Shown one piece after another: positions 5,561 through 61,573 of a stretch of 64,000 bases of DNA; position 1 is the first letter of the stretch, and every line of letters begins with the position of its first letter. A program made the translations under genes and the position numbers. The stretch is taken from positions 11,007 to 75,006 of the forward strand of contig CAKQNS010000002.1 in assembly GCA_934255455.1 (NCBI GenBank), written 5' to 3'. This stretch comes from an uncultured Alphaproteobacteria bacterium (GTDB lineage: Bacteria; Pseudomonadota; Alphaproteobacteria; Rs-D84). The notes beneath the pieces are model-generated. The model did no database searches and had not been told where the DNA came from. It saw nothing but the letters and a program-made list of their open reading frames with translations.

Positions 5561-6973
5561 CTATGGTTCCACAATTACAATCTCGGACCACGCGCCACCA
5601 CCATTACCATCGGCCGCAAATATATAGTTGCCAGCCGTTTCGGGCGCCGTCATGCCACCAGTTGCCGAAATGGTATCGCCATCAATCGTGATGTTCGTGC
5701 CCGCGGTCAATTTATTTTGCTTGCCCGCCAACGCGGTGTTGATGTCGGTCTTGGTGTAATATTGGTCCGCATCAAATGTACCAGATTGGGTAATTTTCGC
5801 ATCAACCTCGGTCTTGGTATATGCGTCACCAATGCCATATCCCGCCAGGGTTGTTGCCTTGTCCGCCTTGGTCGCGATTGATGCAGTGTTTGCCTCTATC
5901 GCGGCGGTATTTGCATCTATGGCATTTTTATTTGCACTGATGTTTGTGGCATTCGCACCAATCAATGTACGCACCGCCGTGTCGTCATACGATTTCGCCG
6001 AAATGGTATCGCCATCAATCGTGATGTTCGTACCCGCGGTCAATTTATTTTGTTTGTCCGCCAATGCCGTGTTCGTTTCGGTCTTGGTATAATATTGTTC
6101 CGCATCAAATGTACCAGAATCACGGATTTTCGCATCAACTTCGGCCTTGGTATAAACATCCGTCTTGGCCGCATAGATTGCCGACAGTGCACTGATTGCA
6201 TCTGCAATCGCGGTGTTCATTTGCTCTGTTGTGGAATATGCACTTAAATCCGCCGGAGTACCGGGTTCACCCGCCGGCCCCTGGGGCCCAGTGATTTCCG
6301 CCTTGGAAATCAGAATTCGCCAATCAGCATCACCCTCGCCCGCATAGCGCCATAACAGGTCGTTGTCATTTGAACCAATTTCAACCTCGCGCCCATCCTG
6401 GCCGGCGATGCTGCCTATTTCGTCTTTTAACCCATCAACATCAACATAAATTTGATTTGTTGTATTATCAATTACAATAAAACCGTTCAGTGTCGGTTCC
6501 AGCGTATCTTGTTTGTCACCCAATTGGCTTGATAAACTATCGTCCGCTTGGTGCAGTTCCTCGGTATCGCGCTGTAATTGGTCAATTTGACGACGCAAAT
6601 CCGCCACAACCGACGGATCAGTTGTACCACCTTCGCCCGGTTCCGGACGCACAGAACTGCCCCCGCTGACGGATGTGGTGCCCCCCAAATATTTTCCAAT
6701 AGATAAACGCGGTGTTGTTGCCACACGACCCGTTGTTGTTGCGGCCACCGGCTTTGCCGTCGCCGTCGTGCCGGTTTTACCAGCCGTTGGTGTCACACGC
6801 AATGACCCCGCACGCGCCGCACCGGTCGATGTTGCATTTGATGCGGCCGACGCACTGGAGTATGTTCCAGCCCCACCCAGCGAACGCACCGACGATGCCG
6901 CGTCAGCCCCGGAAACCGTGGCGCACACCGCACACACAATCGCAAGTATCGATATTTTGGTGTTATTTTTCAT
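5561..6973 (-). CDS. Secreted protein g5 of the tandem family; collagen-like triplet and phage-tail-fibre-like repeats
   Basis: Signal peptide MKNNTKISILAIVCAVCATVSGADA. KQDTL box as in g2/g3. …WRILISKAEITGPQGPAGEPGTP… Two ~55-aa direct repeats YTK(A/T)EVDAKI…GTFDA(E/D)QYYTKT…LA(D/G)KQNKLTAGTNITIDGDTISA. C-terminus …GGGAWSEIVIVEP. Confidence 0.75.
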   Translation of the reverse strand: MKNNTKISILAIVCAVCATVSGADAASSVRSLGGAGTYSSASAASNATSTGAARAGSLRVTPTAGKTGTTATAKPVAATTTGRVATTPRLSIGKYLGGTTSVSGGSSVRPEPGEGGTTDPSVVADLRRQIDQLQRDTEELHQADDSLSSQLGDKQDTLEPTLNGFIVIDNTTNQIYVDVDGLKDEIGSIAGQDGREVEIGSNDNDLLWRYAGEGDADWRILISKAEITGPQGPAGEPGTPADLSAYSTTEQMNTAIADAISALSAIYAAKTDVYTKAEVDAKIRDSGTFDAEQYYTKTETNTALADKQNKLTAGTNITIDGDTISAKSYDDTAVRTLIGANATNISANKNAIDANTAAIEANTASIATKADKATTLAGYGIGDAYTKTEVDAKITQSGTFDADQYYTKTDINTALAGKQNKLTAGTNITIDGDTISATGGMTAPETAGNYIFAADGNGGGAWSEIVIVEP

Positions 6974-18422: not shown

Positions 18423-19541
18423 TTACATGCGCATCGGCATCAATATAAACAATGCGTCGGTGTCCTTGTCCGTCGATTTAATAATCGTTGGCGACAACGG
18501 ATCCTGCATTTCCATCTGGAATTTTTCACCTTCAACCTGGCCGGCAACATCCATCAAGAATTTCACATTAAATGTGACCGTAAACGATGCATCACCATTG
18601 TATTCAATGTCCAATTCCTGGGTTGCGGTACCGGCATCTGGGCTGGACGCATTCACAACCAATTTGTTCATTGAATATGTCAATTGCACAGATTTTGTTT
18701 TATCCATACTGGCAACAGACACCAAATCGACCGCGTTCAAGAACTGTTTTCTGTCCAGAACGGCAATTTTATCGTTGCCCTTTGGAATTACAACACGATA
18801 GTTCGGATATTGCGCATCAACCAGTTTGCTGGTCAAAATTGCCGAACCAACTGTGAAACGCGCCTTGGTATCGGACAATTCAACCGTCACATCATCAACA
18901 GTTGCATCTTCCAATAATTTGGACAATTCACCAATCACGCGACGCGGCAAAATAACCGCCGGCATTTCTGCACTGCCCGCGGGGGCCGGCATTGCACACA
19001 GCGCCATACGCTGGGCATCGGTGGCAACCGCGGTCAACATTTTTTCTTTGCCTTCGTCCGCAATGTGGAAATAAATACCACCCAAATGATAGCGAACATC
19101 GTCGGTTGGAATTGCAAATTTGGTTTGGTTTATCAAATGCGCCAAATCGCCAGTTGTCATCTGGAATTTTGTGGTCAGATTGCTGCCCGCCATGGCCGGG
19201 AAATTTTCCGCCGGCAATGTTGGCAAACGGAATACGGCGCGCCCACTGGACACAACCAATTGGTCACCCGATTGTTTGAAAGTAATTTCGGCATCATCCG
19301 GCAATTTACGAACAATATCATACAACATCTGGACCGGAACAGTTGTTTTTCCACCCAATGTAATATCGGCCGCAACATGTTCAACCAATTCCAAATCAAC
19401 ATTTGTCGCAGACAGGATTAAATCATCTGCAACCTCTAACTTTACATTCATCAATATCGGCAGTGTTGCGCGCTTTTCCACAATTGATTGCATGTGGCCC
19501 AATGCACGAATTAAAACCTGACGAAATACTGAAAATTCCAT
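18423..19541 (-). CDS. dnaN: DNA polymerase III beta sliding clamp
   Basis: 372 aa. N-terminus …ALGHMQSIVEKRATLPILMNVKLEV… aligns with DnaN along its length. RBS AGGAG. Confidence 0.9.
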   Translation of the reverse strand: MEFSVFRQVLIRALGHMQSIVEKRATLPILMNVKLEVADDLILSATNVDLELVEHVAADITLGGKTTVPVQMLYDIVRKLPDDAEITFKQSGDQLVVSSGRAVFRLPTLPAENFPAMAGSNLTTKFQMTTGDLAHLINQTKFAIPTDDVRYHLGGIYFHIADEGKEKMLTAVATDAQRMALCAMPAPAGSAEMPAVILPRRVIGELSKLLEDATVDDVTVELSDTKARFTVGSAILTSKLVDAQYPNYRVVIPKGNDKIAVLDRKQFLNAVDLVSVASMDKTKSVQLTYSMNKLVVNASSPDAGTATQELDIEYNGDASFTVTFNVKFLMDVAGQVEGEKFQMEMQDPLSPTIIKSTDKDTDALFILMPMRM

Positions 19542-19702
19542 AACACGCTCCTAGTATCTATATGTGTTCCCACATTCTTTTGTTCGATTTTACCAAAAAA
19601 TGCCGATTCGGTGCAAGGGGAAAACAAAGCCCGTACAATCGGTTTGTTATTTGCGGATAATTGCTTTTTGTCAAAAACAAAAACGCCCCAAACGGGGCGA
19701 TT

Positions 19703-20461
19703 TTACTTTGCCAGAACTTTGGACAATTTGGTTCGCAATTTTTTTATATCGTCGTACTTTGTAAATTTTCCCTTTTCGGCAATTGATATGTCACCACTTT
19801 CTTCGGATACCACCAAAACGGTCGCACTGGATAATTCCGACAACCCCAGCGCCGCACGGTGACGTGTACCATATTTCCAATTCAGATTATTTTGCGACAA
19901 TGGCAAAATTGCACCAGCATACGCAATACGATTTCGGTCTATTATTACCGCTCCATCATGCAATGGCGTTTTGTTAAAGAATATGGTCAACAACAATTCA
20001 CTGGTAATAACGGCATCTATGCGAACGCCCTTCTTTTCAATGACGCTTTCGTCCAATGTTGACGGAAACACAATCAACGCACCGGTATGTTTTGCCGACA
20101 TATATTCAACCGCACTGCAAATTGCATCCAATCCGCGGGTATCTTGGGCGCTGGCATCACCAAGATGAAATATGCGGGACCAGCCTTCGATATTTCCCAT
20201 CAACGCCATAAATTTTCGCAATTCTGGTTGGAATATAACAATCAAGCCCAATGACAAGAACAATGCCGTCCAATGCAAAAACGCCCCCAGTAAATCCAGA
20301 TGCGCCCACGACAAAATAAAACTGAGTATCCACAGCGCCGCCAGCCCAAACAACCCACGCACCAATTTTTCAGACGATGTGTTGCGAATAAAACCGCGGT
20401 AAAATAACCATACAATCGCCGCGATAATAATAACCTGAATAAAACCCAACCAATTAAACAT
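19703..20461 (-). CDS. cdaA: Diadenylate cyclase CdaA (c-di-AMP synthase), membrane-anchored
   Basis: Three N-terminal TM helices then a DAC domain with both catalytic motifs: HDGAVIIDRNRI and GTRHRAALGLSE…VLVVSEESG. Confidence 0.85.
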   Translation of the reverse strand: MFNWLGFIQVIIIAAIVWLFYRGFIRNTSSEKLVRGLFGLAALWILSFILSWAHLDLLGAFLHWTALFLSLGLIVIFQPELRKFMALMGNIEGWSRIFHLGDASAQDTRGLDAICSAVEYMSAKHTGALIVFPSTLDESVIEKKGVRIDAVITSELLLTIFFNKTPLHDGAVIIDRNRIAYAGAILPLSQNNLNWKYGTRHRAALGLSELSSATVLVVSEESGDISIAEKGKFTKYDDIKKLRTKLSKVLAK

Positions 20462-20464
20462 TTT

Positions 20465-22558
20465 TTATTTTTCCCCCTGTGTTTGTTTTGACATAATTGT
20501 TTGTTGTAATTCTGGTATCGGCAAATTCATCCATTCTGGGTCGTTGCGCATATCTGGCGCACCGCGTTCCATGGCGGTTTCGCACGGATGATCATCCGCC
20601 AGCCAATTTTCCAACAAATCCCCAGCCAGTAAACCAACGCCCGCCCCCGCGACCAAACCGATACCACCGGTAAATGGCGCCAACAACAATCCCAAACCGG
20701 TTGCTGATGCAACCTTGCCCGCGACGGCCGCACCACTGATGCGGACATCTGGCTCGGACAAATTGCCACTGATTTCTATGGAATTTACAACATTTCCGGT
20801 CAACGATAATTTCAGTCCACGCACCGGAACCGTGGTCAATGCCATTTTCATATTTTCGCCCCCCAAATTCAAATTACCTGCCAGGCGCAAATTGATAACA
20901 TTTGTTTCAACCGCAACGCCATTTTGCGTTTCGGCAACGCCATCGCGCAATTTAGTATTCAGGGCCACGCATTTAATCGTAAAACCGTTGTACTTTTTTT
21001 CGCTACGCAACGAATCTTCTATTGCGTGCCGCACCGATGTAAGAAAATCTGTTCCGTACATATATGACATCAATGCCGAATGCGCATACCCCGTGCCCGA
21101 TGATTTAATCTGGACCGGGCCGGTAATAGTCGACATCATTTCCGACAAATTGGTTCCATTGCCCTGAATATATAAATCTATGTTCGTGGGCAGCCCAGAT
21201 ATAAAATCAGATTCCCAAACCTCGTTCAATATTTGACCAATCAATATATCACGTCCAGTTGCCGCCACGGTCGCAAATATGCGTCCATCGGCATCAATGT
21301 CGCCATCGGCACCAATTTGAATATTGCCACCACCAATTGTGGCCCCCATATCAATTCGCACCACGCGGTTTTGCACTTTTGCGGTCAAATCAATTTGCCC
21401 AATTGTCAAATCACGATAAACAATCAGTTTGCCAATCTTGGCCCGAACGGTGCCATTAAATCCGCCGATTTCACGTCCAAACAGCGGGATATCATGAAAC
21501 GCGTTTAATTCACGATCGGGGTGCGTCCAATTGCCATCATATACATCGGGGAATATCTGAATCAGATTTAACGATTTTGATTCAACATTCGCATTCAATT
21601 GTGGTGTCGCCCGCGACCAATCAAATGCACCCGATATGGTCAATTCGTTCCCACGCACCACAATTGACGATTTGCGCAATGTCAGTTTTGAATGATCCAA
21701 CCCGCCCGCAATGTTCACCTGCATCTTTGGCACTTTGTGCAAGTCCAATTTCAGCAAACGCCCCACTGCACGAATGTCTGGAATGTCACCCTTGATTATA
21801 AAATCAATTGGCATACGGCTTTGGCCTTCAAGTGCGATATTTGCAATCAATGCATTTCCACCCGATGAAAAAGCAATACGCATTGGGTATACACGGCGTT
21901 CGGCGTTATATTCCGAATATGTAATTATAAATGGAAATACATCATCACCATTTTTTATCCACCCAGCGTATTCACGCGAATCTGATTTCGGAACATACCG
22001 CAATTGAAACCCAGACAATGAATATGATTCATCAAAAATATGTGCGACCAGGTTTCGAACCTCTACCCCGCCCAAGCCAGGATCTGTAAATGGGTATTTT
22101 GACTGTACAGTTTTTGTCCCATCATCTGAGGCGGTATTATCAGCCAACGCCGACACAATAGAATATGCACCATCGGCGTTTTTTTCCAGGCATACCGTCG
22201 CATCATACACCTTGATGTTTTGAATTGTTGGGCGCGATTGAAACAGTGAAAACAAATTCAATGTGACATCTATTTTTTCGGCACTGAATGCATATTTATG
22301 TTTTGCCCAATCGGCATTCGGAACGCGCACCTGGTTTAATTCAATCCGCGGACGCAGCGAAAATTTCCACGACACGGCACCATCTATTTCAACCGGCATA
22401 CCAGTCGCATTTTGTAATATCGACAAAATGTTGCCACGCAGTGTTTCCAAATTTACCTGGGATAACGCAATTACAAACGCCACAACCATACCGACGATAA
22501 ACAGCATGACTATGCGCATAATTGTCAGAAAAGATTTATTTCGTTTCCGTGTGACCAA
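20465..22558 (-). CDS. AsmA-family outer-membrane assembly protein
   Basis: 697 aa. N-terminal TM anchor then a long predicted beta-rich periplasmic domain. AsmA/DUF3971-like size and organisation. Confidence 0.5.
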   Translation of the reverse strand: MVTRKRNKSFLTIMRIVMLFIVGMVVAFVIALSQVNLETLRGNILSILQNATGMPVEIDGAVSWKFSLRPRIELNQVRVPNADWAKHKYAFSAEKIDVTLNLFSLFQSRPTIQNIKVYDATVCLEKNADGAYSIVSALADNTASDDGTKTVQSKYPFTDPGLGGVEVRNLVAHIFDESYSLSGFQLRYVPKSDSREYAGWIKNGDDVFPFIITYSEYNAERRVYPMRIAFSSGGNALIANIALEGQSRMPIDFIIKGDIPDIRAVGRLLKLDLHKVPKMQVNIAGGLDHSKLTLRKSSIVVRGNELTISGAFDWSRATPQLNANVESKSLNLIQIFPDVYDGNWTHPDRELNAFHDIPLFGREIGGFNGTVRAKIGKLIVYRDLTIGQIDLTAKVQNRVVRIDMGATIGGGNIQIGADGDIDADGRIFATVAATGRDILIGQILNEVWESDFISGLPTNIDLYIQGNGTNLSEMMSTITGPVQIKSSGTGYAHSALMSYMYGTDFLTSVRHAIEDSLRSEKKYNGFTIKCVALNTKLRDGVAETQNGVAVETNVINLRLAGNLNLGGENMKMALTTVPVRGLKLSLTGNVVNSIEISGNLSEPDVRISGAAVAGKVASATGLGLLLAPFTGGIGLVAGAGVGLLAGDLLENWLADDHPCETAMERGAPDMRNDPEWMNLPIPELQQTIMSKQTQGEK

Positions 22559-22560
22559 TT

Positions 22561-23541
22561 TTACTTTCCCTGTGGTAAATGGAATTCAAAAAATTCCATA
22601 ACCGGCGTCATAAATGCCGGTGGTGTGGCGCGAAAAGTCATTATGCGCCCCGTTGTCGGGTGCTGAAAAGTCAACTGGTACGCCAACAAGAACAAATTGT
22701 TGGTTGCAATCACACCGCCCAGCGCATTGTCAATATGCCGCCCCGCCCCATATAACGCATCACCAACGATTGGTGCATTCAAAACGCATGCGCTGTGCAC
22801 ACGCAATTGGTGTGTACGGCCGGTTTTCGGCGAAAACAAAACCCATGACAAATGATCGCCAGCATTTGCCAAAACACGATATTCCGTAATTGCACGTTGG
22901 GGGCGTTGACCGGCACCATTATTTACGCGCGCTGGACTGTCAAACACCTGGCCTTTGATCATATAGTCATCAATGATTCCATGCGACGGTTTAACATCAC
23001 CGTTTAACAATGCCAGATATTCTTTGTGCGCGGTTTTTGCCTGGAACGCGGTTGCCAAACTTTGCGCCGCACGCATATTTTTTGCAACGACCAACAAACC
23101 AGATGTTTCGCGGTCCAACCGATGCACCAATGAAATTTTGTCATACGGAAACAACGCCGCCGCCATTTTATCCACAGATTTACGAATGCCCGTGCCACCC
23201 TGGACCGCCAATCCAGCCGGTTTATTAAACACCACGATATCGTCATCATTGTGAATGATACACCTGCGCAAATCTTCCAAATCAGTTAAAGAAAATACGA
23301 CACCACTCTCAGTCTTTTTGGTGCGTTGTTCGGCATATCCGGCAATTGTGGGCGGCACACGCACCACATCACCCGCCAGTAATATCTCGGTCCCGCGCAC
23401 GCGACGTGAATTCACACGAATTTGCCCCCCACGACACAATTTGTAAAATTCGCGCTGTGGCATTGATGGAAAATGCCGCAAGAACCAGCGCAACAAACGT
23501 GTGCCCTCTTCGGTCTGTGGAACTGTGATGAATTCAGCCAT
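22561..23541 (-). CDS. RluA-family 23S rRNA pseudouridine synthase (RluC/RluD-like)
   Basis: S4-like N-terminus then catalytic motif HRLDRETSGLLVVAKN. Confidence 0.8.
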   Translation of the reverse strand: MAEFITVPQTEEGTRLLRWFLRHFPSMPQREFYKLCRGGQIRVNSRRVRGTEILLAGDVVRVPPTIAGYAEQRTKKTESGVVFSLTDLEDLRRCIIHNDDDIVVFNKPAGLAVQGGTGIRKSVDKMAAALFPYDKISLVHRLDRETSGLLVVAKNMRAAQSLATAFQAKTAHKEYLALLNGDVKPSHGIIDDYMIKGQVFDSPARVNNGAGQRPQRAITEYRVLANAGDHLSWVLFSPKTGRTHQLRVHSACVLNAPIVGDALYGAGRHIDNALGGVIATNNLFLLAYQLTFQHPTTGRIMTFRATPPAFMTPVMEFFEFHLPQGK

Positions 23542-23558
23542 TGCAATACCCGTATATA

Positions 23559-24023
23559 TTATTCGCCGTATATTATTTCAACGGTATTGTTGTTTGCGCC
23601 ATTTTTACAATTTCCCGTGGCCCCACTGTTTTTACCATTGGAATTTGTATATCCAATCGAATCAGACCAGGCCTTGGTAGCAAAATATTCACAATCAGAT
23701 TGCGCCAGCCCAGAAATAGTCACAACAAATTGGCGCGAATTAGATGGATCAACCGCCAACGCGTATGTCCCACCATACGGGTTTTGATTTGTCATACCAA
23801 TTACATTAAATATGGTGCTGTTGTTTATATGTGAATAATCGTCATATTCGCCCAGCAGTGTGCGAACCTGGGTCACCATTTGAATGACCTCGTCATTGAC
23901 AGCATTGCGCTTTTGCGTGCGCATGGCGGTTGAAATCATTCCAATCGCCCCAACAGTTATCACTCCCATGATGGCCAAAACACCCAACATTTCAATCATG
24001 GAACGCCCTGATTCTTGTCTCAT
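23559..24023 (-). CDS. Type IVb pilin (TcpA/BfpA/PilS-like major pilin)
   Basis: Class III signal MRQESG|RSMIEMLGVLAIMGVITVGAIG… with Glu at +5. N-terminal helix closely resembles TcpA (…VLGIMGVVSAGVV…AQRAIDSQN…). C-terminal Cys pair (SDCEYF…TGNCKNG) fits a D-region disulfide. Confidence 0.7.
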   Translation of the reverse strand: MRQESGRSMIEMLGVLAIMGVITVGAIGMISTAMRTQKRNAVNDEVIQMVTQVRTLLGEYDDYSHINNSTIFNVIGMTNQNPYGGTYALAVDPSNSRQFVVTISGLAQSDCEYFATKAWSDSIGYTNSNGKNSGATGNCKNGANNNTVEIIYGE

Positions 24024-24072
24024 AATATATCTCCCATTTGCTATTTGTTTTTTTTATTCTATCATATTTGAT

Positions 24073-25494
24073 ATGGATGTTCAATTTTCTGATTTAATCG
24101 CAAACAGCCCAAATGCCCCCGGGGTCTATAAAATGTACGACGCCGATGGCGCATTATTGTATGTGGGCAAGGCAAAAAACCTGTCAAACCGGCTGAAACA
24201 ATATGTGGACACATCCAAATTGGAATTGCATAAACAGGTTATGCGCAGTCTGGTCGCGCGCGTTGATTGGGAAACCGTTCCCACCGAATCGGACGCGTTA
24301 TTGCGCGAACAGGAATTGATTAAAACCCTGCGTCCCAAATATAATATTATGTTGACCGATGGGAAAATGTACCCAATGTTGGCATTGACCAATTCGGAAT
24401 ATCCGCGCCTGTTAAAATTTCGCGGTAAAATTTCCCAGCGGCGCGATGTATATGGCCCATATCCGTCGGTTGGCGCATTGAACGAAACTATTAAAACAAT
24501 TCAAAAAGTATGCCAGATTCGCACATGCAACGATACATTTATGCGCAATCGCGCGCGCCCATGCTTATTACACCAAATTGGCCGATGCAGCGCACCATGT
24601 GTATTACCCCAAACAGATTACGACGCACGCGTCGGCTTGGCGCGCCGAATCTTGACTGGGGACAGCGAACCAATCATTGCTGAATTAACACAACAAATGC
24701 AAAAATTTTCATCGGAAATGGATTTTGAATCGGCGGCGGCGGTGCGCGATAAAATCGCCGAATTAACGCATACATCAAATCGCGGTATGCGGCGTGAACG
24801 TGCACATAGCGCGAATTTTGATTGGGAAAATTCTGTCAATGATTTGGAACAATTTTCCGGTGTAAAAATACAGATAGTTGGTGTATTTGACAATTCACAT
24901 TTGTTTGGCCGCAGTCCCGTTGGTGCGATGATAACATTTGGTCACAATGGTTTCATAAAAAATGGATACCGCCATTTCAAATTACGCAATGCAGCCGCCG
25001 CCGGAAACGATATTGCAATGATGGCCGAATTTGTAACCCGCGCGACCGAAAAAAATAAACTGGATATGATTATTGTTGATGGCGGTATGGCGCAATGGCG
25101 CATTGCACACCGCGTTGCACCCAACATTCCGATTTTGGGTGTCACCAAGGGCGAGGTTCGCAACGGCGACGAACACTTTATTATGCCTGATGGCACCATC
25201 AACCGCGATGTCCCCAAGGATTCACGATTGTTTTTATTGTTGCGTGCCGTCCGGGACGAGGCACATCGTTTCGTCATAACATATCACCGCACCGTTCGCG
25301 CAAAGACAATGACATCATCGGTACTGGATGATATTGAAGATATCGGTCCAAAACGCAAACACGCCCTGCTGACACATTTCGGTGCAGTTCGTGAAATTGC
25401 CGATGCCGATATGGCCGCATTGTTGCGCGTTCCGGGGCTGGGGCGCAGTGCCGCCGAAAAAATTTATGCCTATTTCCATTCTGGGGTGGTATAA
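24073..25494 (+). CDS. uvrC: Excinuclease ABC subunit C (compact form)
   Basis: GIY-YIG motif GVYKMYDADGALLYVGKAKNLSNRLKQY. Cys cluster. UvrB-interaction region (FESAAAVRDKIAEL). C-terminal HhH (LLRVPGLGRSAAEKI). 473 aa from ATG 24073, shorter than the ~600-aa norm. Confidence 0.8.
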   Translation: MDVQFSDLIANSPNAPGVYKMYDADGALLYVGKAKNLSNRLKQYVDTSKLELHKQVMRSLVARVDWETVPTESDALLREQELIKTLRPKYNIMLTDGKMYPMLALTNSEYPRLLKFRGKISQRRDVYGPYPSVGALNETIKTIQKVCQIRTCNDTFMRNRARPCLLHQIGRCSAPCVLPQTDYDARVGLARRILTGDSEPIIAELTQQMQKFSSEMDFESAAAVRDKIAELTHTSNRGMRRERAHSANFDWENSVNDLEQFSGVKIQIVGVFDNSHLFGRSPVGAMITFGHNGFIKNGYRHFKLRNAAAAGNDIAMMAEFVTRATEKNKLDMIIVDGGMAQWRIAHRVAPNIPILGVTKGEVRNGDEHFIMPDGTINRDVPKDSRLFLLLRAVRDEAHRFVITYHRTVRAKTMTSSVLDDIEDIGPKRKHALLTHFGAVREIADADMAALLRVPGLGRSAAEKIYAYFHSGVV

Positions 25495-27454: not shown

Positions 27455-29434
27455 ATGACAGAAAATAATACACACACATACGACGCATCAGATATTCAGG
27501 TACTGGAAGGTTTAGAGCCCGTTCGTCTGCGCCCCGGCATGTATATTGGCGGCACCGACGAAAAGGCATGGCATCACCTGCCGATTGAAATTATGGACAA
27601 CTCGATTGACGAGGCGGTGGCCGGTTTTGCCAAGAAAATCACCGTAAACCTGATTGATGCCAAAACAATTGAAATTACCGACGATGGTCGCGGTATTCCG
27701 GTTGATGAACACCCAAAATACCCGGGCAAATCCGCGTTAGAGGTTATTTTAACCACACTGCATTCGGGCGGTAAATTTAACAACAATGTTTATAAAACCA
27801 GTGGTGGTCTGCACGGCGTGGGCAGTGCGGTCGTAAACGCGTTGTCGCAAGAGATGATTGTGACAATTTCCCGCGATGGATATGAATGGCACCAAACTTT
27901 TTCACGCGGGAAACCTACAACCGCAATGACCCGCGGTGATGCAACACGGGCGCACGGAACAAAAATCCGCTTTACCATTGATGACGAAATATTCGGCGCA
28001 AATGCGGTGTTCAAACCGGTCAAGATTTACCGTATGGCGCGTGCGAAATCTTTCCTGTCGCGCGGGGTCAAAATTGATTGGCATTGTAATCCAGAATTAT
28101 TGACCGAGGATATGAACATCCCCGCCGATACGACATTCTATTACCCGGGTGGTGTGGCCGATTTCTTGGACGAAAAAACCCGTGACAAACCACGCATTTT
28201 GCCAAAAATTTTCAGTGGCAGTGTTGATTTCCCGGACGATTCCGGTCGCGTGGAATGGGCGTTGACGGTGTTGACCGATGAAAACGGAGCGGCGTCTGAC
28301 GATGGATTTTTTGCATCATATTGCAATACAATTGCAACAATTGATGGCGGCACACACGAAACCGGATTCAAGGCCGCAATTACCAAGGGGATAAAGGCAT
28401 ACGGCGAAAAAGTAAACAACAAATCCGCCACCACAATCATTGGTGATGATGTATTTGATTCGGTCGCCGCAATTGTATCTGTGTTCTACAAAACACCGCA
28501 ATTTTTGGGCCAGACCAAGGAAAAATTATCTAACCCTGAAATTGCACGATACACTGAAAATGCCCTGCGCGACCCATGGGAAATATTCTTGGCATCCGAC
28601 CCCAAAACGGCAAACGCGTTGTTGGATTTTGTGGTAAACCTGGCAAATGCCCGTATCAAAACCAAACAGGTCAAGGATATTGCCCGCAAAACCCCGACCA
28701 AGCGCGCCCGTATGCCGGCGAAATTGGCCGATTGTTCAAAACACGGAATCGAAGGCACCGAATTATTTATTGTCGAGGGCGAATCTGCGGGCGGCACTGC
28801 AAAACAGGCGCGCGACCGTGCGACCCAGGCAATTATGCCCCTGCGTGGCAAGGTATTAAATGTTATCTCTAATTCCGACGAACGATTCGGTGCGAACAAG
28901 GAATTAAACGAACTGATTGACATTATCGGTGCCGGCACGGCCAAGGATTGGGATGAATCCAAACTGCGCTATGAAAAAATTATCGTTATGACCGATGCCG
29001 ATGTCGATGGCAGCCATATTGCATCACTGTTGATGGCGTTTTTCTATCAGCACATGCCACAATTGATTTATGGTGGCCACCTGTACCTGTCGTGCCCACC
29101 ACTGTATAAATTCACATGCGGCACAGAATCATTTTATGTTGACAGTGACGAAGAATTGGACGCATTGCAAAACGGCAAATATAAAAATAAAAAGGTGGAA
29201 ATTTCCCGATTCAAGGGTTTGGGCGAAATGATGCCCAACCAGTTAAAGGAAACAACCATGTCGCCAAAAACGCGTCGGTTGATTCGCGTCGACCTGCCCC
29301 CGCGGACGGACGATGGCGCCGAAGACACGGAAAAAACCCGCACAATTGTTTCCGAACTGATGGGGAAAAAGCCCGAATTTCGTTTCCGCTTTATCACTGA
29401 ACACGCACAATTTGTCAAAGATTTGTTTGTCTGA
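27455..29434 (+). CDS. parE: Type IIA topoisomerase ATPase subunit, most likely topoisomerase IV ParE (659 aa); GyrB not excluded
   Basis: GHKL ATPase motifs (…EIMDNSIDEA…DDGRGIP…GLHGVGSAVVNALS…), Toprim (…ELFIVEGESAGG…DADVDGSHI…). The length fits ParE rather than GyrB (~800 aa). Confidence 0.8.
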   Translation: MTENNTHTYDASDIQVLEGLEPVRLRPGMYIGGTDEKAWHHLPIEIMDNSIDEAVAGFAKKITVNLIDAKTIEITDDGRGIPVDEHPKYPGKSALEVILTTLHSGGKFNNNVYKTSGGLHGVGSAVVNALSQEMIVTISRDGYEWHQTFSRGKPTTAMTRGDATRAHGTKIRFTIDDEIFGANAVFKPVKIYRMARAKSFLSRGVKIDWHCNPELLTEDMNIPADTTFYYPGGVADFLDEKTRDKPRILPKIFSGSVDFPDDSGRVEWALTVLTDENGAASDDGFFASYCNTIATIDGGTHETGFKAAITKGIKAYGEKVNNKSATTIIGDDVFDSVAAIVSVFYKTPQFLGQTKEKLSNPEIARYTENALRDPWEIFLASDPKTANALLDFVVNLANARIKTKQVKDIARKTPTKRARMPAKLADCSKHGIEGTELFIVEGESAGGTAKQARDRATQAIMPLRGKVLNVISNSDERFGANKELNELIDIIGAGTAKDWDESKLRYEKIIVMTDADVDGSHIASLLMAFFYQHMPQLIYGGHLYLSCPPLYKFTCGTESFYVDSDEELDALQNGKYKNKKVEISRFKGLGEMMPNQLKETTMSPKTRRLIRVDLPPRTDDGAEDTEKTRTIVSELMGKKPEFRFRFITEHAQFVKDLFV

Positions 29435-30678: not shown

Positions 30679-32154
30679 TTATTGGATACCGACGCGGAAC
30701 TCGTCACCCCAACCGGCGACGGCCTGGCCGCCAACGGTACATTGCAGGGCATCAAAACCTTTTTCAACTTGATTTTTCTTGACCACATGGCTGGTAACCA
30801 AACCACCGGTCGTTCCCAGTACAACCGCAGCAATGGAATCTGATGCCAAACGTGCGGTGTTGAAATTACCCTCGGCATCTTTCCACACGGTCACCTTGAA
30901 ATCATCTTGCATGCTGTCCAATTTGCTGATGATACCACTGATTTTATTGCGCGATGTTGTTTGCTGAACCGACAACTGCGCCGCCGCGGCGTTTTGCGCC
31001 TGTTGGTTTTGCGCTGAAATAAGCGCACGCAATTGCGCCATTAAACTGTTAAATTTAATCGAATCGCGATTGCTGTCATTTGTACAGAATTCTAAAATCG
31101 CATTGATTTTGTTTTGAATTTCGGCGTTTGTTGCATATTGTTCCAACCAGGCATACAACATATTCAAATCAGATTCCGCACAGGTATATGTGGATTGGTT
31201 GTTATTATTTTGCACAACTGTGGCGCCAACACAACTGCGGCTTGATGCATTAAATGTTTTTGTCGCATCAACACATGTGCAATTCGTACCGTTCCATGTT
31301 GCAACCGACGATGGCATATAACAACATGCCTTGCCCTCGGCCGAGGAACGCGAATTCAAACATTTTTGCAACGCGCCACTTTGTACGACGCCCTTGGCCA
31401 CACATTTTTTGTTGACTGCGTCCCACACATGTTTATCGCCACAATTGCATGCCGTGCCATTCCAATTTGTAGGCTCACCCCGGGCGGCGGCCGCCACACA
31501 ATCGGACTGGGCCGCGGTCGCGCCACCATTTGATGTGTTATTACTTGCAATGCCCGCGACCGAACATTTGCCATTATTTACCACCATACCTTCAATACAC
31601 TTGGTCGCCTTGCATACAAATTTTGGTCCCTCGCGGCAAACACCTTCAAATTCAACACCATTTTGATCGGTCATTTCAATACCGCTGCATTCGATTTTGG
31701 TCAAAACACGTACGGCGCCATCCTTCATCAAATGTTGTCCAACCGGAACATCACCAAACGAATTTGTTTTGCAGACGCCGTCCTGCAATTCTTCCCACCG
31801 GTCATTTCCACCCTTGCCACCACGGAATAACAATTCCGTTTTACAGATGTACGATGCCTTGTGATTGATTATTTGTCCCTTGAATACATGTCCGACCGGC
31901 ATAGTCACAGATTGCCCCGTGGTATACCCACCAGAATTATATGCGTCACATTCGTATGCGTACCCACCACCAGAATTTTTATGTCCGGTCGTTTCATACC
32001 CATTTTTCGCCATATTATACTGTGTCGCATTTTCATACAAAAATTCGTCATCATCTGGTTTTTGTGAACCCTCGTAACTGATGATGGTTGCGCCGGCCGC
32101 AAATACCGACATTGGTGCCATTGCCAAAAACAAAACTGCTAGTATTTTTTTCAT
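30679..32154 (-). CDS. Secreted cysteine-rich repeat protein (hypothetical)
   Basis: Signal peptide MKKILAVLFLAMAPMSVFA. About 30 Cys. Internal duplicated unit (T/N)WNGT(A/N)C(N/T)C(G/V)D…(K/S)(K/R)CV(A/G)…VVQ. Cys-free Gln/Ala-rich C-terminal ~150 aa. Confidence 0.6.
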   Translation of the reverse strand: MKKILAVLFLAMAPMSVFAAGATIISYEGSQKPDDDEFLYENATQYNMAKNGYETTGHKNSGGGYAYECDAYNSGGYTTGQSVTMPVGHVFKGQIINHKASYICKTELLFRGGKGGNDRWEELQDGVCKTNSFGDVPVGQHLMKDGAVRVLTKIECSGIEMTDQNGVEFEGVCREGPKFVCKATKCIEGMVVNNGKCSVAGIASNNTSNGGATAAQSDCVAAAARGEPTNWNGTACNCGDKHVWDAVNKKCVAKGVVQSGALQKCLNSRSSAEGKACCYMPSSVATWNGTNCTCVDATKTFNASSRSCVGATVVQNNNNQSTYTCAESDLNMLYAWLEQYATNAEIQNKINAILEFCTNDSNRDSIKFNSLMAQLRALISAQNQQAQNAAAAQLSVQQTTSRNKISGIISKLDSMQDDFKVTVWKDAEGNFNTARLASDSIAAVVLGTTGGLVTSHVVKKNQVEKGFDALQCTVGGQAVAGWGDEFRVGIQ

Positions 32155-32284: not shown

Positions 32285-33568
32285 TTATTTGCATTCGGCA
32301 ACCAATTGATTTATTTGCGCCGCCAAAACCAAATCTGTCTGTTTTTGTTTTTCAATTTGGGAAATAGCATATACAACCGTCGCATGGTCGCGACCGCCAA
32401 CATAACCGCCAATTTCAGACAACGACAACCCTGTTGCAGATTTCAACACCGCCATCATAACCTGGCGCGCCATAACCAATGCGCGACTGCGTCCACGGCC
32501 ACATACCGCATCATACGAAACACCCAATTTTTCGCACATTGCACGCACCATAGAAATTGGTGTTTTTGCGCGTTGTAATGTGTCGGCCAACAAACGCGAC
32601 GCAACATTCATGTCAACCGGCATTCCCATCAAATCATTATATGTTTTGATTTTCATAATAACGCCGCGAACTAAATGACCATCGGCCGCCGTGCGATGCG
32701 CCAATTCGGTTGCAACATCCGACGCAACCCCCGCACGCAACAACATTACACGACGAACATTTTCATTTGGTTGAACCATATCTGCAACCAAGCCCGACGC
32801 CATCAACGATTGTGCACGACGATCAAAACCAGTCAAATTACCCGGTGCCGCATTTGCCGTTAAAACGATGTTTTTACCGGCACTGCGCAAATCCATAATC
32901 AGTTGCATAAATTCTTCGCATGTGGCACGTTTACCAGCCAACATTTGAACATCATCCATAATAAATGTATCACAATTGCGGCAGTAATCTTTGAATGCGA
33001 AAATTGTGCGGTCATGCAACGCGCGTGCAAATTCCGAAACAAAATTACCACCAGTCATCATAATGGTGCGACCCACCGCAGCCGAATTGATGCAACGCGC
33101 CAACAACGATTTACCGCAACCCGCCGGGCCATAAATAAACAACGGCGAGAATGGTACACACCCCGCCGCCAATTTTTTGCATGCCGACACGACAAACGCA
33201 TTTTCGTCGGACGCAACAAATTCTTCGAATGTTGCGGTTGTCGCATCATCAGTCGCGCGCGCCGCCGGTGCATAGGATTGAACCGCGTTATCATTCGCAA
33301 CGGTTGCCGGCGCAACCGCCGCACCGCGCACCGCAATGCGCACCGCCAAACCAAATTCCGCCGCAACCGCGTTTAATGTTGCACCATGCACCCCCGAAAT
33401 AAAATCGGCCGAGAATTGATTTTGCGCGGTCAACACCAGTGTATTATCAGCAATTTCAAAATTCAGTGGGGAAATCCAGGACGAGAACGCAGCAGAATCC
33501 ATTTTTGCGGCAATGGCCCCCTTGATAACTTCCAAGTTAGTCATTTTTATTGTCGCCGCTGCCTGCAT
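32285..33568 (-). CDS. dnaA: Chromosomal replication initiator DnaA
   Basis: N-terminal domain (…FSSWISPLNFEIADNTLVLTAQNQF…), AAA+ (IYGPAGCGKSLL, …DDVQML…), C-terminal DNA-binding helix-turn-helix (…LSLSEIGGYVGGRDHATVVYAISQIE…). ATG 33568 chosen for its strong RBS AAGGAAGGAG; the ORF track starts at GTG 33628. Confidence 0.85.
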   Translation of the reverse strand: MQAAATIKMTNLEVIKGAIAAKMDSAAFSSWISPLNFEIADNTLVLTAQNQFSADFISGVHGATLNAVAAEFGLAVRIAVRGAAVAPATVANDNAVQSYAPAARATDDATTATFEEFVASDENAFVVSACKKLAAGCVPFSPLFIYGPAGCGKSLLARCINSAAVGRTIMMTGGNFVSEFARALHDRTIFAFKDYCRNCDTFIMDDVQMLAGKRATCEEFMQLIMDLRSAGKNIVLTANAAPGNLTGFDRRAQSLMASGLVADMVQPNENVRRVMLLRAGVASDVATELAHRTAADGHLVRGVIMKIKTYNDLMGMPVDMNVASRLLADTLQRAKTPISMVRAMCEKLGVSYDAVCGRGRSRALVMARQVMMAVLKSATGLSLSEIGGYVGGRDHATVVYAISQIEKQKQTDLVLAAQINQLVAECK

Positions 33569-33627
33569 GTCGTTTCTCCTTCCTTTCAGAGTTTCCTGCC
33601 AGCGCAAGAGTGTAAAAATCACCTGCA

Positions 33628-33671
33628 CATAAACGCTAAATTTTACTGTTCCATAAAATTTAGTGTTTATG
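33628..33671. promoter_or_regulatory. 18-bp inverted repeat (cataaacgctaaatttta-N8-taaaatttagtgtttatg) ~60 bp upstream of dnaA
   Basis: Near-perfect palindrome in the dnaA 5' region, followed by an AT-rich 200-bp intergenic stretch. Confidence 0.4.
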
Positions 33672-38655: not shown

Positions 38656-38694
38656 ATTACTCTCCAAGATTCCCAGTTTCACACGCACCATTTA

Positions 38695-39585: not shown

Positions 39586-39761
39586 AAAAACTTCCTTTAC
39601 TGAATAAGTTGTTTCATTTATTGCACTTATTATAACAATTTGACCGAATCTGTGCAAGACCAAATCGCACCCAACAAATTTAATATTTTCAAGATAAAAT
39701 CGCACGAATCGGTAAAAGATGTTATACTGTTCGTGTTTAATACGACATACGGGGCGAAAAA

Positions 39762-58220: not shown

Positions 58221-58835
58221 TCAATCATAGAAATCGTCGCCGCCACTGGTGCTGACGGTTTTGTGTCGTGATATTTGAAAATAGTTTTTCCCGAAATCTG
58301 TTTTTGTTTTCAGCCCCGAAAACGCGACATCGGTTGTTGTGCCGGTGGCGTCAACGACACTCCACGAATTTAACTTTACGGGCTTCTTGTCAAATACAAC
58401 CGTCATGTGCCCCAAACCCTCTTGACCGCGCAAATTTAATTTTAACGAAAAAGTTCTTTTATCATCTGTGGTTTCAACAACATTTATATCGGCATTTTTC
58501 AAATCAATTTTTTTGCGAATTAAAATGCCAGCGGGGGTACTGGTCAATGGCACAGTTGTAATTTGGTCCAGTGAACTGTCAAAAAAATACAAATCGCGAC
58601 CGTCAGCAATCAATTGCACCGGCATATCGTTATAGTCCAACCGAACACGACCCGGGCGCAACATAGAAAACACACCATGCTGTTTTTTACCAGACGCAGT
58701 TTGCGTGAAATCACCGGTCAGCCCAGTTATAGAATTCAAATATTTTTCCGCCGAATTCACCAAAGCATTGTCAACCGCGGCACGGGCCGGAATTACCATC
58801 ATGCACAACAAAATTGCGGCAAATATTTTTTTCAT
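58221..58835 (-). CDS. lolA: Outer-membrane lipoprotein carrier protein LolA-like
   Basis: Signal peptide. …GDFTQTASGKKQHGVFSMLRPGRVRLDY…LYFFDSSLDQIT… LolA half-barrel pattern. Confidence 0.65.
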   Translation of the reverse strand: MKKIFAAILLCMMVIPARAAVDNALVNSAEKYLNSITGLTGDFTQTASGKKQHGVFSMLRPGRVRLDYNDMPVQLIADGRDLYFFDSSLDQITTVPLTSTPAGILIRKKIDLKNADINVVETTDDKRTFSLKLNLRGQEGLGHMTVVFDKKPVKLNSWSVVDATGTTTDVAFSGLKTKTDFGKNYFQISRHKTVSTSGGDDFYD

Positions 58836-59788
58836 AATTGCTCCTTTTTGAACAAATCCAATAATTTTGTGCGAACATTTTCCAATGTGTCGTCAATAAC
58901 AGCGCCAGCTGCGAATGTATGCCCCCCACCACCCATTGCCGTTGCAATGTGTTCAACCGGGTGACTGCGCCCGCGCAGTGACAGGCCAATCTTATTTTCT
59001 TTTTGTTCTTTTAATAACGCAATACATTCAACGCCACGTATTTGCGCCAACAAATTCAAAATCAATTCACCGCGACCATCCAAATGCTTGTAATCTTTTT
59101 TGAAAACCGTTGCCAACGCCAATTTTCCACGGAATAAAAATTCGGCATTAGAAACAACCGCGGCCTCGGTCTGGACGGCGCGACGCGGTTTGTTGTTCAT
59201 ACCATCGGCCAATTCGGCAATGTTTGCACCCGCGTCCACCAAATCGGCCATTATGCGCAAAACATCACCACGACGGGCAAATTTGAAAAAACCGGTATCG
59301 GTCAATATAGACACCGACAACAAATCGCGAACAATATCATCAGATTTCCAATTTAATTCCCGCATTATCTGATACACAATTTGACCAGCGGCCATTGCTG
59401 TATCATCGTCGATGCACAATTGTGCCACATGCGCGTCATTTATATGATGGTCGATTTCAACGGTATACCGCGCGTTTTCCAAAATAGGCATTGTGCCACC
59501 GATGTTTCGTGCCGTACCATAATCCATCACAATCGCAACATCAAACGGGCGCGCCAGATCCAAATGTTCAAAATATGTTATGCGATGCCGTTCGGGCACA
59601 TTATCCAACGCATCGGGAATATTACCATCGTATGTACAAATTGGACGACGACCATAATTTAATTCTATCAACCGCGCCAATGCCAACACGCTGCACAACG
59701 CATCACCATCGGGATTTTTATGTGCAAAAATTGCAATCGAACGCGCCGACCGAATTTTCTCGTCAAAAATTTTCAGTTTATCATCCAT
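58832..59788 (-). CDS. nrnA: DHH-DHHA1 phosphoesterase, NrnA-like (nanoRNase / pAp phosphatase)
   Basis: DHH motifs (…IFAHKNPDGDALCS…, …VEIDHHINDAH…) and DHHA1 (…GGGGHTFAAGA…). 318 aa. Confidence 0.8.
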   Translation of the reverse strand: MDDKLKIFDEKIRSARSIAIFAHKNPDGDALCSVLALARLIELNYGRRPICTYDGNIPDALDNVPERHRITYFEHLDLARPFDVAIVMDYGTARNIGGTMPILENARYTVEIDHHINDAHVAQLCIDDDTAMAAGQIVYQIMRELNWKSDDIVRDLLSVSILTDTGFFKFARRGDVLRIMADLVDAGANIAELADGMNNKPRRAVQTEAAVVSNAEFLFRGKLALATVFKKDYKHLDGRGELILNLLAQIRGVECIALLKEQKENKIGLSLRGRSHPVEHIATAMGGGGHTFAAGAVIDDTLENVRTKLLDLFKKEQL

Positions 59789-59797
59789 ATATAAATC

Positions 59798-61573
59798 CTA
59801 TATTGCAATATCTTCAACAAAGAATTGCGCACTTTTGCGGCCATTATATTCGTTTTCTTTCAACCGCCCCAGCATTGTAATTGTAGTGTTTGTGTTTGCA
59901 TCGTCCAGTAAAAAATCACCAACCGGCGTTCCAACCAGATTAAACCCGACAAACGCCAATTGACCGTTGCTGGTCATAACATTGCCGCGCAAATGCGCGC
60001 CATTACCCATAACACTGGCAAAGCGCAACGACGCCCCATGCAGAATCAACATTGGTTCGGGGTTGCCCTGGCCGAATGGTTCCAGTGCGCCCATTTGTTC
60101 AATCAATTTCATATTTGCAGCACCGGCGTCTAATTCGGCATCGGCCACAATTTCACATGTTGGGATTTCGCCATTTAATTGCGCTCGCACGGCATTTTCC
60201 AGAAATTCGCGGAACGCGGCCTCGTTTTCCGTACGCAAAGAAAATCCCGCCGCCGCCGCATGACCGCCGCCCTCGGACACAACGCCCGCCGCCAATGCAT
60301 CGTGAATAATGCGGCCTAAATCGACCCCGGCAATAGAACGGCCCGAACCATTTATCATACCATCGGCACGCGTCGCGACGCATGATGGCAAATTATATTT
60401 ATCCTTTAACCGGCCTGCAATAATTCCCATAACACCGCCATGCCAATTATCGCCACAAACAAACAAACTGCAATTGCCGGTCTGTTTGCATTTTTCGGCC
60501 TGGGCATCGGCACACAACATAATTGCATTTTGAATATCAATGCGTTCCTGGTTCATGTGGTGCAATTTATTTGCCAAATCGCCCGCAATCAATGGATTAT
60601 CGGTCAACAGCAATTCCAATGCCGGTGCGGCCGAATCCAACCGCCCCGCCGCATTCAACCGCGGCCCCAACGCAAACCCGGCCGCATATACAGATGGCCG
60701 ACGAATACCCGCAACATCCATCAATACGCGCAGCCCCAAATTTTGGTGCAACCCCAATACTTTCAGTCCCGTTGCAACAAACGCGCGGTTTAATCCAACC
60801 AACGGCATAGTGTCACAAATGGTCCCCAACGCCACCAAATCCAAATAATTCATCAAATTCAGATTATTCACGCGCGCCCGCATATCATCGGATAAATCGC
60901 GCGATTTTAATTCACGTCGCAATGCAACCATTGTCAAAAATGCAACACCAACCCCCGCCAGATATGATAACCCAGACGTGTCATCCGTGCGTTTTGGATC
61001 AATCACCGCATCGGCTGCCGGCAAAACCGCGTCGGGTGAATGGTGGTCGGTCACAACAACCCGCATTCCCAATTCGCGTGCATGTGCGACATCGGACGCG
61101 CCGGAAATTCCACAATCAACCGTTATCAGCAACTTTGCGTCCTGGGACGCAATTTCATCAATTGCATGCGCGTTCAGGCCATATCCTTCGCCCTCGCGGG
61201 TGGGCAAATGCCAAATACAATCCACCCCCAACGCCCGCAAACATTTAATGCAAATTGCGGTCGATGTAATTCCATCAACATCATAGTCACCGTATATTGC
61301 AATTTTATCACCACGCAAAACACTGTCTGCAATGATGCGCGCGGCATCGTCCATATCGTGCAGCACAGATGGATCTGGCATATATTCTTTGATACTGGGG
61401 TTCAGGAACTTTTCCTGGGCATCGGCCCCAGTCACACCACGACTGACCAAAATTTTTTGTACTAAATTATCAGCCCCGGCGGCGCCATCATCAGATGTCG
61501 CCACCATCCATGCCCGCCCCAGCATGGATTTATCTACTACTTTTCTCACGCTATACTCTTTTTTTATTATCAA
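59798..61573 (-). CDS. recJ: Single-stranded-DNA-specific exonuclease RecJ
   Basis: DHH motifs (IAIYGDYDVDGITSTA…, VVVTDHHSP), DHHA1 (…GGGHAAAAGFSL…), C-terminal OB domain. ~590 aa. Confidence 0.9.
   Translation of the reverse strand: MIIKKEYSVRKVVDKSMLGRAWMVATSDDGAAGADNLVQKILVSRGVTGADAQEKFLNPSIKEYMPDPSVLHDMDDAARIIADSVLRGDKIAIYGDYDVDGITSTAICIKCLRALGVDCIWHLPTREGEGYGLNAHAIDEIASQDAKLLITVDCGISGASDVAHARELGMRVVVTDHHSPDAVLPAADAVIDPKRTDDTSGLSYLAGVGVAFLTMVALRRELKSRDLSDDMRARVNNLNLMNYLDLVALGTICDTMPLVGLNRAFVATGLKVLGLHQNLGLRVLMDVAGIRRPSVYAAGFALGPRLNAAGRLDSAAPALELLLTDNPLIAGDLANKLHHMNQERIDIQNAIMLCADAQAEKCKQTGNCSLFVCGDNWHGGVMGIIAGRLKDKYNLPSCVATRADGMINGSGRSIAGVDLGRIIHDALAAGVVSEGGGHAAAAGFSLRTENEAAFREFLENAVRAQLNGEIPTCEIVADAELDAGAANMKLIEQMGALEPFGQGNPEPMLILHGASLRFASVMGNGAHLRGNVMTSNGQLAFVGFNLVGTPVGDFLLDDANTNTTITMLGRLKENEYNGRKSAQFFVEDIAI

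Follow-up and report, generated by a model that had tools for sequence, protein, structure and literature searches.

A diadenylate cyclase gene kept beside an asmA-like gene across gut Alphaproteobacteria of the order Rs-D84

The biology of cyclic di-AMP (c-di-AMP) has been worked out almost wholly outside the Alpha-, Beta- and Gammaproteobacteria, and we know of no experimental work on a c-di-AMP system from an alphaproteobacterium. In Firmicutes such as Listeria monocytogenes, Bacillus subtilis and Staphylococcus aureus, the cyclase CdaA (DacA) begins with three transmembrane helices, which a linker joins to a diadenylate cyclase (DAC) domain, and its gene forms a module with cdaR and glmM. 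CdaR is a single-pass membrane protein with an extracytoplasmic domain. Smaller systems are found in reduced genomes. The diderm Borrelia has a CdaA together with DhhP, a one-domain DHH-DHHA1 enzyme that is its c-di-AMP phosphodiesterase (cited in PMC5508000). The minimal system of Mycoplasma pneumoniae, a host-dependent, genome-reduced bacterium, consists of CdaM, PdeM and KtrC, and the synthase and the phosphodiesterase are both essential (PMC5508000). The subject of this paper is a cdaA gene in a 64,000-nucleotide stretch of DNA (the window; positions 11,007 to 75,006 of contig CAKQNS010000002.1, assembly GCA_934255455.1) from an uncultured alphaproteobacterium of Rs-D84. In reverse complement the window corresponds to positions 200,001-264,000 of a 275-kb contig that stems from a Hadza human-gut metagenome. 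The gene is read here as encoding a functional CdaA, as belonging to the vertically inherited core of Rs-D84, and as having been acquired once and anciently; this reading as a whole is given a probability of about 0.8.

The gene and the parts of its product are placed as follows.

19703..20461, minus strand: cdaA, membrane-anchored diadenylate cyclase, 252 amino acids (open reading frame, TIGR00159, Pfam DAC, match to solved structures)
20225..20461, minus strand: three hydrophobic (transmembrane) segments, residues 1-79 (hydropathy; weak match to CdaA_N, PF19293, residues 6-80)
19766..20116, minus strand: DAC catalytic domain, residues 116-232 (Pfam PF02457)
19949..19957, minus strand: DGA catalytic motif, D169-G170-A171 (aligned with the motif of solved CdaA structures)
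19856..19864, minus strand: RHR catalytic motif, R200-H201-R202 (aligned with solved CdaA structures)

Domains and motifs mark the product of this open reading frame (ORF) as a canonical CdaA of the membrane type, and its catalytic motifs are intact. The whole protein scores 193.8 bits with TIGR00159, the NCBIfam equivalog model of CdaA (cutoff 188.8), and falls well under the cutoffs of the CdaS, CdaM and DisA models. The Pfam DAC match (E 3.1e-38) covers profile positions 2-118 of 119. Kyte-Doolittle hydropathy gives three hydrophobic segments at about residues 1-26, 32-55 and 57-79, and the weak CdaA_N match (21.7 bits) lies just under its cutoff of 23.8. The motifs H168-DGA171, G198-TRHRAA204 and V217-VSEESG223 (S219-EESG223) agree column for column with those of solved CdaA structures (9g69, E 3.5e-36; 8ofg). 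Of these, 9g69 is a full-length CdaA chain, and its alignment with the window's protein begins at residue 9. An earlier, sequence-only reading of the window had described three N-terminal transmembrane helices, an intact DAC domain and these same motifs; hydropathy, Pfam and the equivalog score bear out the first two, and the motifs are all present and unsubstituted in the alignment to solved structures. The protein would condense two molecules of ATP into c-di-AMP.

The window's CdaA thus has in common with Firmicute CdaA the three helices, the linker, the DAC domain and the DGA, RHR and SEE(T/S)G motifs, with homology to solved structures at E values from 1e-25 to 3.5e-36. It scores above the same equivalog model, yet it is shorter and almost tail-less at the C-terminus. 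The Borrelia CdaA (cluster P0189, 256-258 amino acids) is likewise short and tail-less, with about 34% identity, and likewise comes from a diderm with a reduced genome, but from a different phylum. CdaM of M. pneumoniae, which has one transmembrane helix, belongs to another DAC class, and its model gives the window's protein 109 bits against a cutoff of 225. No new enzyme class or mechanism is revealed by the window's CdaA.

The catalytic motifs are conserved throughout the clade. All 200 CdaA sequences of the clade have HDGA, SEE(S/T)G and RHR; the longer pattern GTRHRAA occurs in 199 of them, the lone exception being GTRHRAG. The first 120 matches in a homology search with the window's CdaA all belong to the clade, and MAG CAKQGH01 carries a CdaA 98% identical to it. 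The relatives were scanned with one genome per GTDB species. A close CdaA is carried by at least 118 species representatives, and synteny was read from the best 80, whose CdaAs are 73-98% identical to that of the window. Against 52 orthologues of equal length the dN/dS ratio (nonsynonymous to synonymous substitution rates) of cdaA has a median of 0.10, and the closest orthologue gives 0.025; in most of the pairs dS is saturated.

The gene order is kept as well. When 13 window proteins were compared with the 80 loci by tblastn, the order pilin-like gene, rluC, asmA-like gene, cdaA was the same in every locus long enough, and the asmA-like gene was adjacent to cdaA in all 80. In most of the loci dnaN lies downstream of cdaA. 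It does not in seven (L033, L039, L045, L058, L061, L063 and L064), and there the junction of the asmA-like gene with cdaA is still intact. Across the 80 loci the DnaN sequences are 91-99% identical to that of the window, and those of the fast-evolving AsmA-like protein 49-95%. The composition of cdaA (GC content 0.433, GC at third codon positions 0.466, codon-usage correlation 0.80 with the other genes) is within the range of the neighbouring housekeeping genes. The gene belongs to the core of Candidatus Enterousia and Rs-D84, where it is inherited vertically and is under strong constraint. That DAC proteins prove to be common in close relatives, in at least 118 species representatives and with conserved synteny, goes against the sequence-only reading, which had taken the gene for a sign of horizontally acquired signalling.

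The 80 best related loci come from human, ruminant, horse, rabbit and chicken guts, and their records are labelled uncultured Alphaproteobacteria bacterium, Candidatus Enterousia or uncultured Rickettsiales bacterium. NCBI gives the lineage of Candidatus Enterousia as Alphaproteobacteria incertae sedis. In a 2025 paper the genus is placed in the GTDB order Rs-D84, with genomes mostly below 1 Mb; it is described there as having no respiration, no tricarboxylic acid (TCA) cycle and few biosynthetic pathways, and a partner-dependent lifestyle was proposed (PMC12306168). The alphaproteobacterial background named in the sequence-only reading agrees with the record titles, the NCBI lineage and the GTDB placement in that paper. 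Two loci bear foreign titles, Bacteroides fragilis (L010, CAVGNU010000020.1) and uncultured Muribaculaceae bacterium (L049, CAZJGX010000004.1). Both carry the alphaproteobacterial locus from gyrB to the asmA-like gene and cdaA, with CdaAs 79-86% identical to the window's; mis-binning of these contigs is the likeliest explanation.

P0121 (locus L088), from a 2.3-kb contig of JGI 3300042636, stands for a branch that lies deeper in this lineage and shares its gene order. Its CdaA is 58% identical to that of the window and is flanked by the C-terminus of an asmA-like gene (55% identity) and by dnaN (84%). Since P0121 shares the asmA-like/dnaN context, the arrangement is older than the genus level of Enterousia. 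The Enterousia CdaAs and P0121 were monophyletic in 96.5% of 200 neighbour-joining (NJ) bootstraps.

The breakdown of c-di-AMP would involve a second gene of the window, which lies in a cluster 38 kb from cdaA.

58832..59788, minus strand: stand-alone DHH-DHHA1 phosphoesterase, 318 amino acids, NrnA/DhhP/TmPDE-like (Pfam, motifs, Protein Data Bank)
59798..61573, minus strand: recJ, directly upstream of the DHH gene (TIGR00644, 507 bits)
58221..58835, minus strand: lolA, with a 4-nucleotide overlap with the end of the DHH gene (Pfam LolA, E 2.5e-25)

The sequence-only reading had noted the DHH-DHHA1 ORF and had proposed that it may form a minimal turnover pair with cdaA. The ORF exists and is intact, but on the minus strand; the plus strand of 58832-59788 contains eight stop codons. 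Its product consists of a DHH domain (PF01368, E 3.5e-13) and a DHHA1 domain (PF02272, E 1.1e-8) and no other, and the motifs DGD26-28, DHH113-115 and GGGGH286-290 are intact when aligned to TmPDE. The best solved relatives are TmPDE of Thermotoga maritima (TM1595, E 2.9e-21), a RecJ-like protein and Rv2837c/NrnA (E 1.4e-17). TmPDE acts on linear 5'-pNpN dinucleotides (pApA) and is not known to act on c-di-AMP. The window's protein is like TmPDE and Rv2837c/CnpB in two-domain architecture, length and catalytic motifs, but it is a distant relative (E 1e-17 to 3e-21) in a family that varies in the cleavage of c-di-AMP and of linear dinucleotides. It scores 100.4 bits with the NrnA equivalog model NF053633, far under the cutoff of 350, and is therefore filed as an NrnA-like DHH-DHHA1 protein and not as NrnA proper. 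Its likely role is in pApA and nanoRNA turnover, and in the breakdown of c-di-AMP it would carry out at least the pApA step.

A further-reaching proposal is that the protein is the lineage's c-di-AMP phosphodiesterase, of the DhhP/PdeM/CnpB type, so that CdaA and the DHH protein would set the c-di-AMP level without GdpP, PgpH or AtaC. The intact DHH and DHHA1 domains with their motifs agree with this, as does the kinship to the CnpB-type NrnA Rv2837c and the weaker, marginal match to 9n0l, a chain of a GdpP-type c-di-AMP phosphodiesterase (E 5e-4). No PgpH- or GdpP-like genes were seen in the roughly 79 kb inspected (the window and its flanks), but about 90% of the genome is outside that region. 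The closest solved relative, TmPDE, is a linear-dinucleotide enzyme; the bit score is less than a third of the NrnA cutoff; the gene is placed in a recJ/DHH/lolA cluster and not with cdaA; and any cell needs a nanoRNase, whether or not it makes c-di-AMP. Precedents point both ways. One-domain DHH enzymes are the sole c-di-AMP phosphodiesterases of Borrelia, Mycobacterium tuberculosis and M. pneumoniae, but M. pneumoniae has two similar one-domain DHH proteins, its phosphodiesterase and a separate NrnA, of which PdeM cleaves c-di-AMP and NrnA does not (PMC5508000). Because paralogous one-domain DHH proteins differ in this way, the substrate is not assignable from sequence. The proposal is tentative, with the odds somewhat against it. 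Of the turnover pair, then, the intact stand-alone enzyme stands, and the pairing itself is a possibility only, given the 38 kb between the genes and the missed NrnA cutoff.

The immediate surroundings of cdaA differ from the Firmicute module, and are made up of the following features.

23559..24023, minus strand: type-IV-pilin-like ORF, 154 amino acids, first of the conserved block (sequence reading; synteny)
22561..23541, minus strand: RluA/RluC-type pseudouridine synthase (TIGR00005, 204 bits, cutoff 192.7; Pfam PF00849; synteny)
20465..22558, minus strand: AsmA-family membrane protein, mechanical ORF of 697 amino acids (Pfam AsmA, PF05170; synteny)
19684..19699, minus strand: intrinsic-terminator-like hairpin, CGCCCCGTTTGGGGCG then TTTTTGTTTT (sequence and terminator scan)
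18423..19541, minus strand: dnaN, downstream of cdaA past the terminator (TIGR00663, 277 bits)
24056..24084, minus strand: sigma-70-like promoter match ahead of the pilin-like ORF, TTGAAC-17-TAGAAT with TG (consensus scan only; weak)

The position of cdaA between an asmA-like gene and dnaN, and the lack of the usual cdaR and glmM partners, had both been noticed in the sequence-only reading, and both hold: neither the YbbR/CdaR nor the phosphoglucosamine-mutase (PGM/PMM) Pfam family is found among the called genes of the window and its flanks. In place of the cdaA-cdaR-glmM module, cdaA here ends a block of pilin-like gene, rluC and asmA-like gene, in a diderm alphaproteobacterium. The stop codon of the asmA-like gene lies 3 nucleotides ahead of the cdaA ATG on the same strand. 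The hairpin starts 3 nucleotides past the cdaA stop codon; it is G+C-rich, with a stem of six G-C pairs out of six, and is followed by a T-run, and its call rests on its position and on this stem. We infer that the four genes form an operon with cdaA as its last gene, ending at the hairpin, mainly because of the tight spacing and the conserved gene order, the promoter and terminator scans being no guide above shuffled sequence. The pilin-like ORF has a G-RSMIE-hydrophobic N-terminal stretch, read directly from the sequence, and no family match in the Pfam and NCBIfam scans. With dnaN, gyrB and dnaA nearby, cdaA is located in the dnaA region.

The constant neighbour of cdaA could have a regulatory meaning. 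It can be supposed that the AsmA-like protein, an inner-membrane or periplasmic protein, takes over the regulation of CdaA from CdaR and GlmM, in which case c-di-AMP synthesis would be tied to the status of the outer-membrane lipids or of the envelope. The 3-nucleotide gap speaks for this, as does an adjacency that holds in 80 of 80 loci, including the seven without downstream dnaN, and also in the deeper relative L088. CdaR, too, crosses the membrane once and has a domain outside the cytoplasm. That two genes adjoin in a compact genome is, however, a weak sign of interaction, and the AsmA-like protein diverges much faster than CdaA. The AsmA models (PF05170, E 1.3e-18, and YhdP) match only its N-terminal 130 residues or so (residues 13-144) in a protein of 684 amino acids, if the start at about 22519 given by gene callers is used. 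The two nearest outside loci, L086 and L087, have no AsmA-like neighbour. A regulatory partnership of this kind is therefore considered unlikely.

The origin of the gene was approached by a homology search of 1.84 billion representatives clustered at 50% identity, which gave 6,561 matches. Past P0121 and some fragments, the identity of these representatives to the window's CdaA drops to 45% or less. Of 30 representatives taken from among the nearest ones outside the clade, two have organism names, Vampirovibrionales and Borrelia. In the NJ point estimate the Enterousia/P0121 clade joins a group of about 26 representatives. A profile of this neighbouring group retrieved 120 proteins, of which all the organism-named ones belong to Vampirovibrio, Vampirovibrionales, Candidatus Melainabacteria or a metagenome-assembled genome (MAG) titled 'Cyanobacteria bacterium'. 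Borrelia P0189 is also among the nearer representatives, and in one NJ tree it stands just outside the Melainabacteria-type group. The CdaAs of Melainabacteria and Vampirovibrionales, known from MAGs and metagenomes, are 43-45% identical to that of the window and share with it the stretch LPL(T/S)..(P)xL(S/N)W(K/Q/R)YGTRHRAA. They are longer, at 300-410 amino acids, and have C-terminal extensions. One of their loci, L086, has the order lysA-cdaA-ispD beside flagellar genes, unlike the context in the window.

Melainabacteria-type CdaAs are thus the best-scoring candidates from outside, judging by sequence similarity, and no Melainabacteria donor is claimed because the bootstrap support of the sister group is 25-50%. 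The sequence-only reading had looked to a DAC tree for the donor lineage; what the tree gives is a robust clade and a weak sister group, and it singles out no donor. Its suggestion of horizontal acquisition fails for a recent transfer, in view of the synteny and the native composition, and can hold only for an ancient one, no later than the base of the Rs-D84/Enterousia clade. A single, ancient acquisition of cdaA from outside the Alphaproteobacteria is most likely.

The contrary view, that CdaA is ancestral in early Alphaproteobacteria, was kept only in Rs-D84 and was lost in the other orders, would fit the depth at which P0121 shows the gene to be fixed in the lineage and the failure of the NJ trees to single out a donor. 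It needs many independent losses, however. Apart from P0121, which belongs to the same lineage by its asmA-like/dnaN context, the nearest representatives are the distant ones just described, and the organism-named outsiders are Melainabacteria/Vampirovibrionales or Borrelia, with no other alphaproteobacteria among them. Surveys report the Proteobacteria as essentially DAC-free (PMC12901056). Ancestral presence with loss elsewhere is accordingly very improbable.

Least tenable is the view that cdaA is a recent horizontal acquisition, or an assembly or binning artefact foreign to the genome or contig, which could appeal to the great rarity of DACs in Proteobacteria (1.7% of UHGG species; PMC12901056) and to the missing Firmicute partners but is effectively refuted by the same context in 80 species representatives that were assembled independently and come from human, ruminant, horse and chicken hosts, by native GC content and codon usage, by a divergence of CdaA that parallels that of its neighbours, and by a location among dnaN, gyrB and dnaA, so that recent transfer and a chimeric contig are both ruled out.

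Several points weigh against the account of cdaA as a functional core gene that was acquired once and anciently. The alphaproteobacterial placement is drawn from record titles and from the literature. The link to the Melainabacteria type has an NJ bootstrap of only 25-50%: the exact sister grouping is found in 25% of the replicates, the nearest neighbour is wholly inside the Melainabacteria-type group in about 50%, and P0124 or P0204 takes its place in the remaining ones. The counts of promoter and terminator matches are not above those in shuffled sequence. None of the usual c-di-AMP receptor Pfam families is found among the called genes of the inspected region, which spans positions of about 191,998-270,645 on the 275-kb contig and is about 9% of a genome of about 0.9 Mb, and no ydaO-type riboswitch is found in the window, where Rfam reports two tRNAs only. 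As only this fraction of the genome was inspected, a genome-wide absence of receptors is not concluded. The search for receptors suggested by the sequence-only reading has in this way been carried out over that region, with none seen, nor any Ktr-type target comparable to KtrC of M. pneumoniae.

By analogy with Mycoplasma and Borrelia, which use c-di-AMP in reduced genomes, the messenger would probably control an essential homeostatic process in Rs-D84, such as the balance of potassium and turgor. The strong constraint on cdaA in genomes of about 0.9 Mb argues that the messenger is important or essential there, in an order found widely in the guts of humans and livestock.

DACs are rare in the Proteobacteria, as the sequence-only reading had stated. 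A 2026 survey of 4,744 gut species found CdaA in six species of the phylum (1.7%), which is otherwise treated as DAC-free (PMC12901056). Yet several proteins of the clade are already named 'diadenylate cyclase CdaA [Alphaproteobacteria bacterium]' by NCBI, so that the presence of the enzyme as such had been recorded. The Enterousia papers that were consulted make no mention of c-di-AMP. What is noteworthy is the strict retention of cdaA across an order of genome-reduced gut alphaproteobacteria, and the asmA-like gene that invariably accompanies it instead of cdaR and glmM. The finding also slightly corrects estimates of the gut taxa able to produce c-di-AMP, which activates STING, and Rs-D84 offers a compact system of about 900 genes in which the smallest target set of c-di-AMP in a diderm could be sought.

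A more ambitious picture can be drawn, in which c-di-AMP is an essential core module of the whole of Rs-D84, captured once from a co-resident of the gut outside the Proteobacteria, possibly Melainabacteria-like, and later rewired, with CdaA co-expressed with the AsmA-like protein and perhaps controlled by it, in place of CdaR and GlmM. No earlier c-di-AMP system would then have been described from the Alphaproteobacteria, and c-di-AMP would be tied in a new way to outer-membrane homeostasis. The whole of this picture is a long shot.

Some features of the window stand apart from these questions. The mechanical ORF of uvrC (23884-25494, plus strand, 536 amino acids) overlaps the pilin-like gene on the opposite strand; gene callers start uvrC later, at a length of 473 amino acids, and the overlap is an artefact of taking the longest ORF. 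A secretin gene (PF00263) adjoins a TcpQ-like gene (PF10671) at 37027-39705 on the minus strand, and together with the pilin-like ORF these two may belong to a pilus or a secretion apparatus, in a lineage for which dependence on partner cells has been proposed. The replication genes dnaN (18423-19541), gyrB (27455-29434) and dnaA (32285-33628) are spread over 15 kb among unrelated genes, unlike the common dnaA-dnaN-recF-gyrB arrangement. Four large ORFs of 398-512 amino acids, all on the minus strand (4319-5515, 5561-6973, 30679-32154 and 49843-51381), are called as genes on the source contig and have no Pfam or NCBIfam match. A gene of the MCRA/oleate-hydratase family (PF06100) is present at 52693-54321 on the minus strand, in a genome said to be without most lipid biosynthesis.

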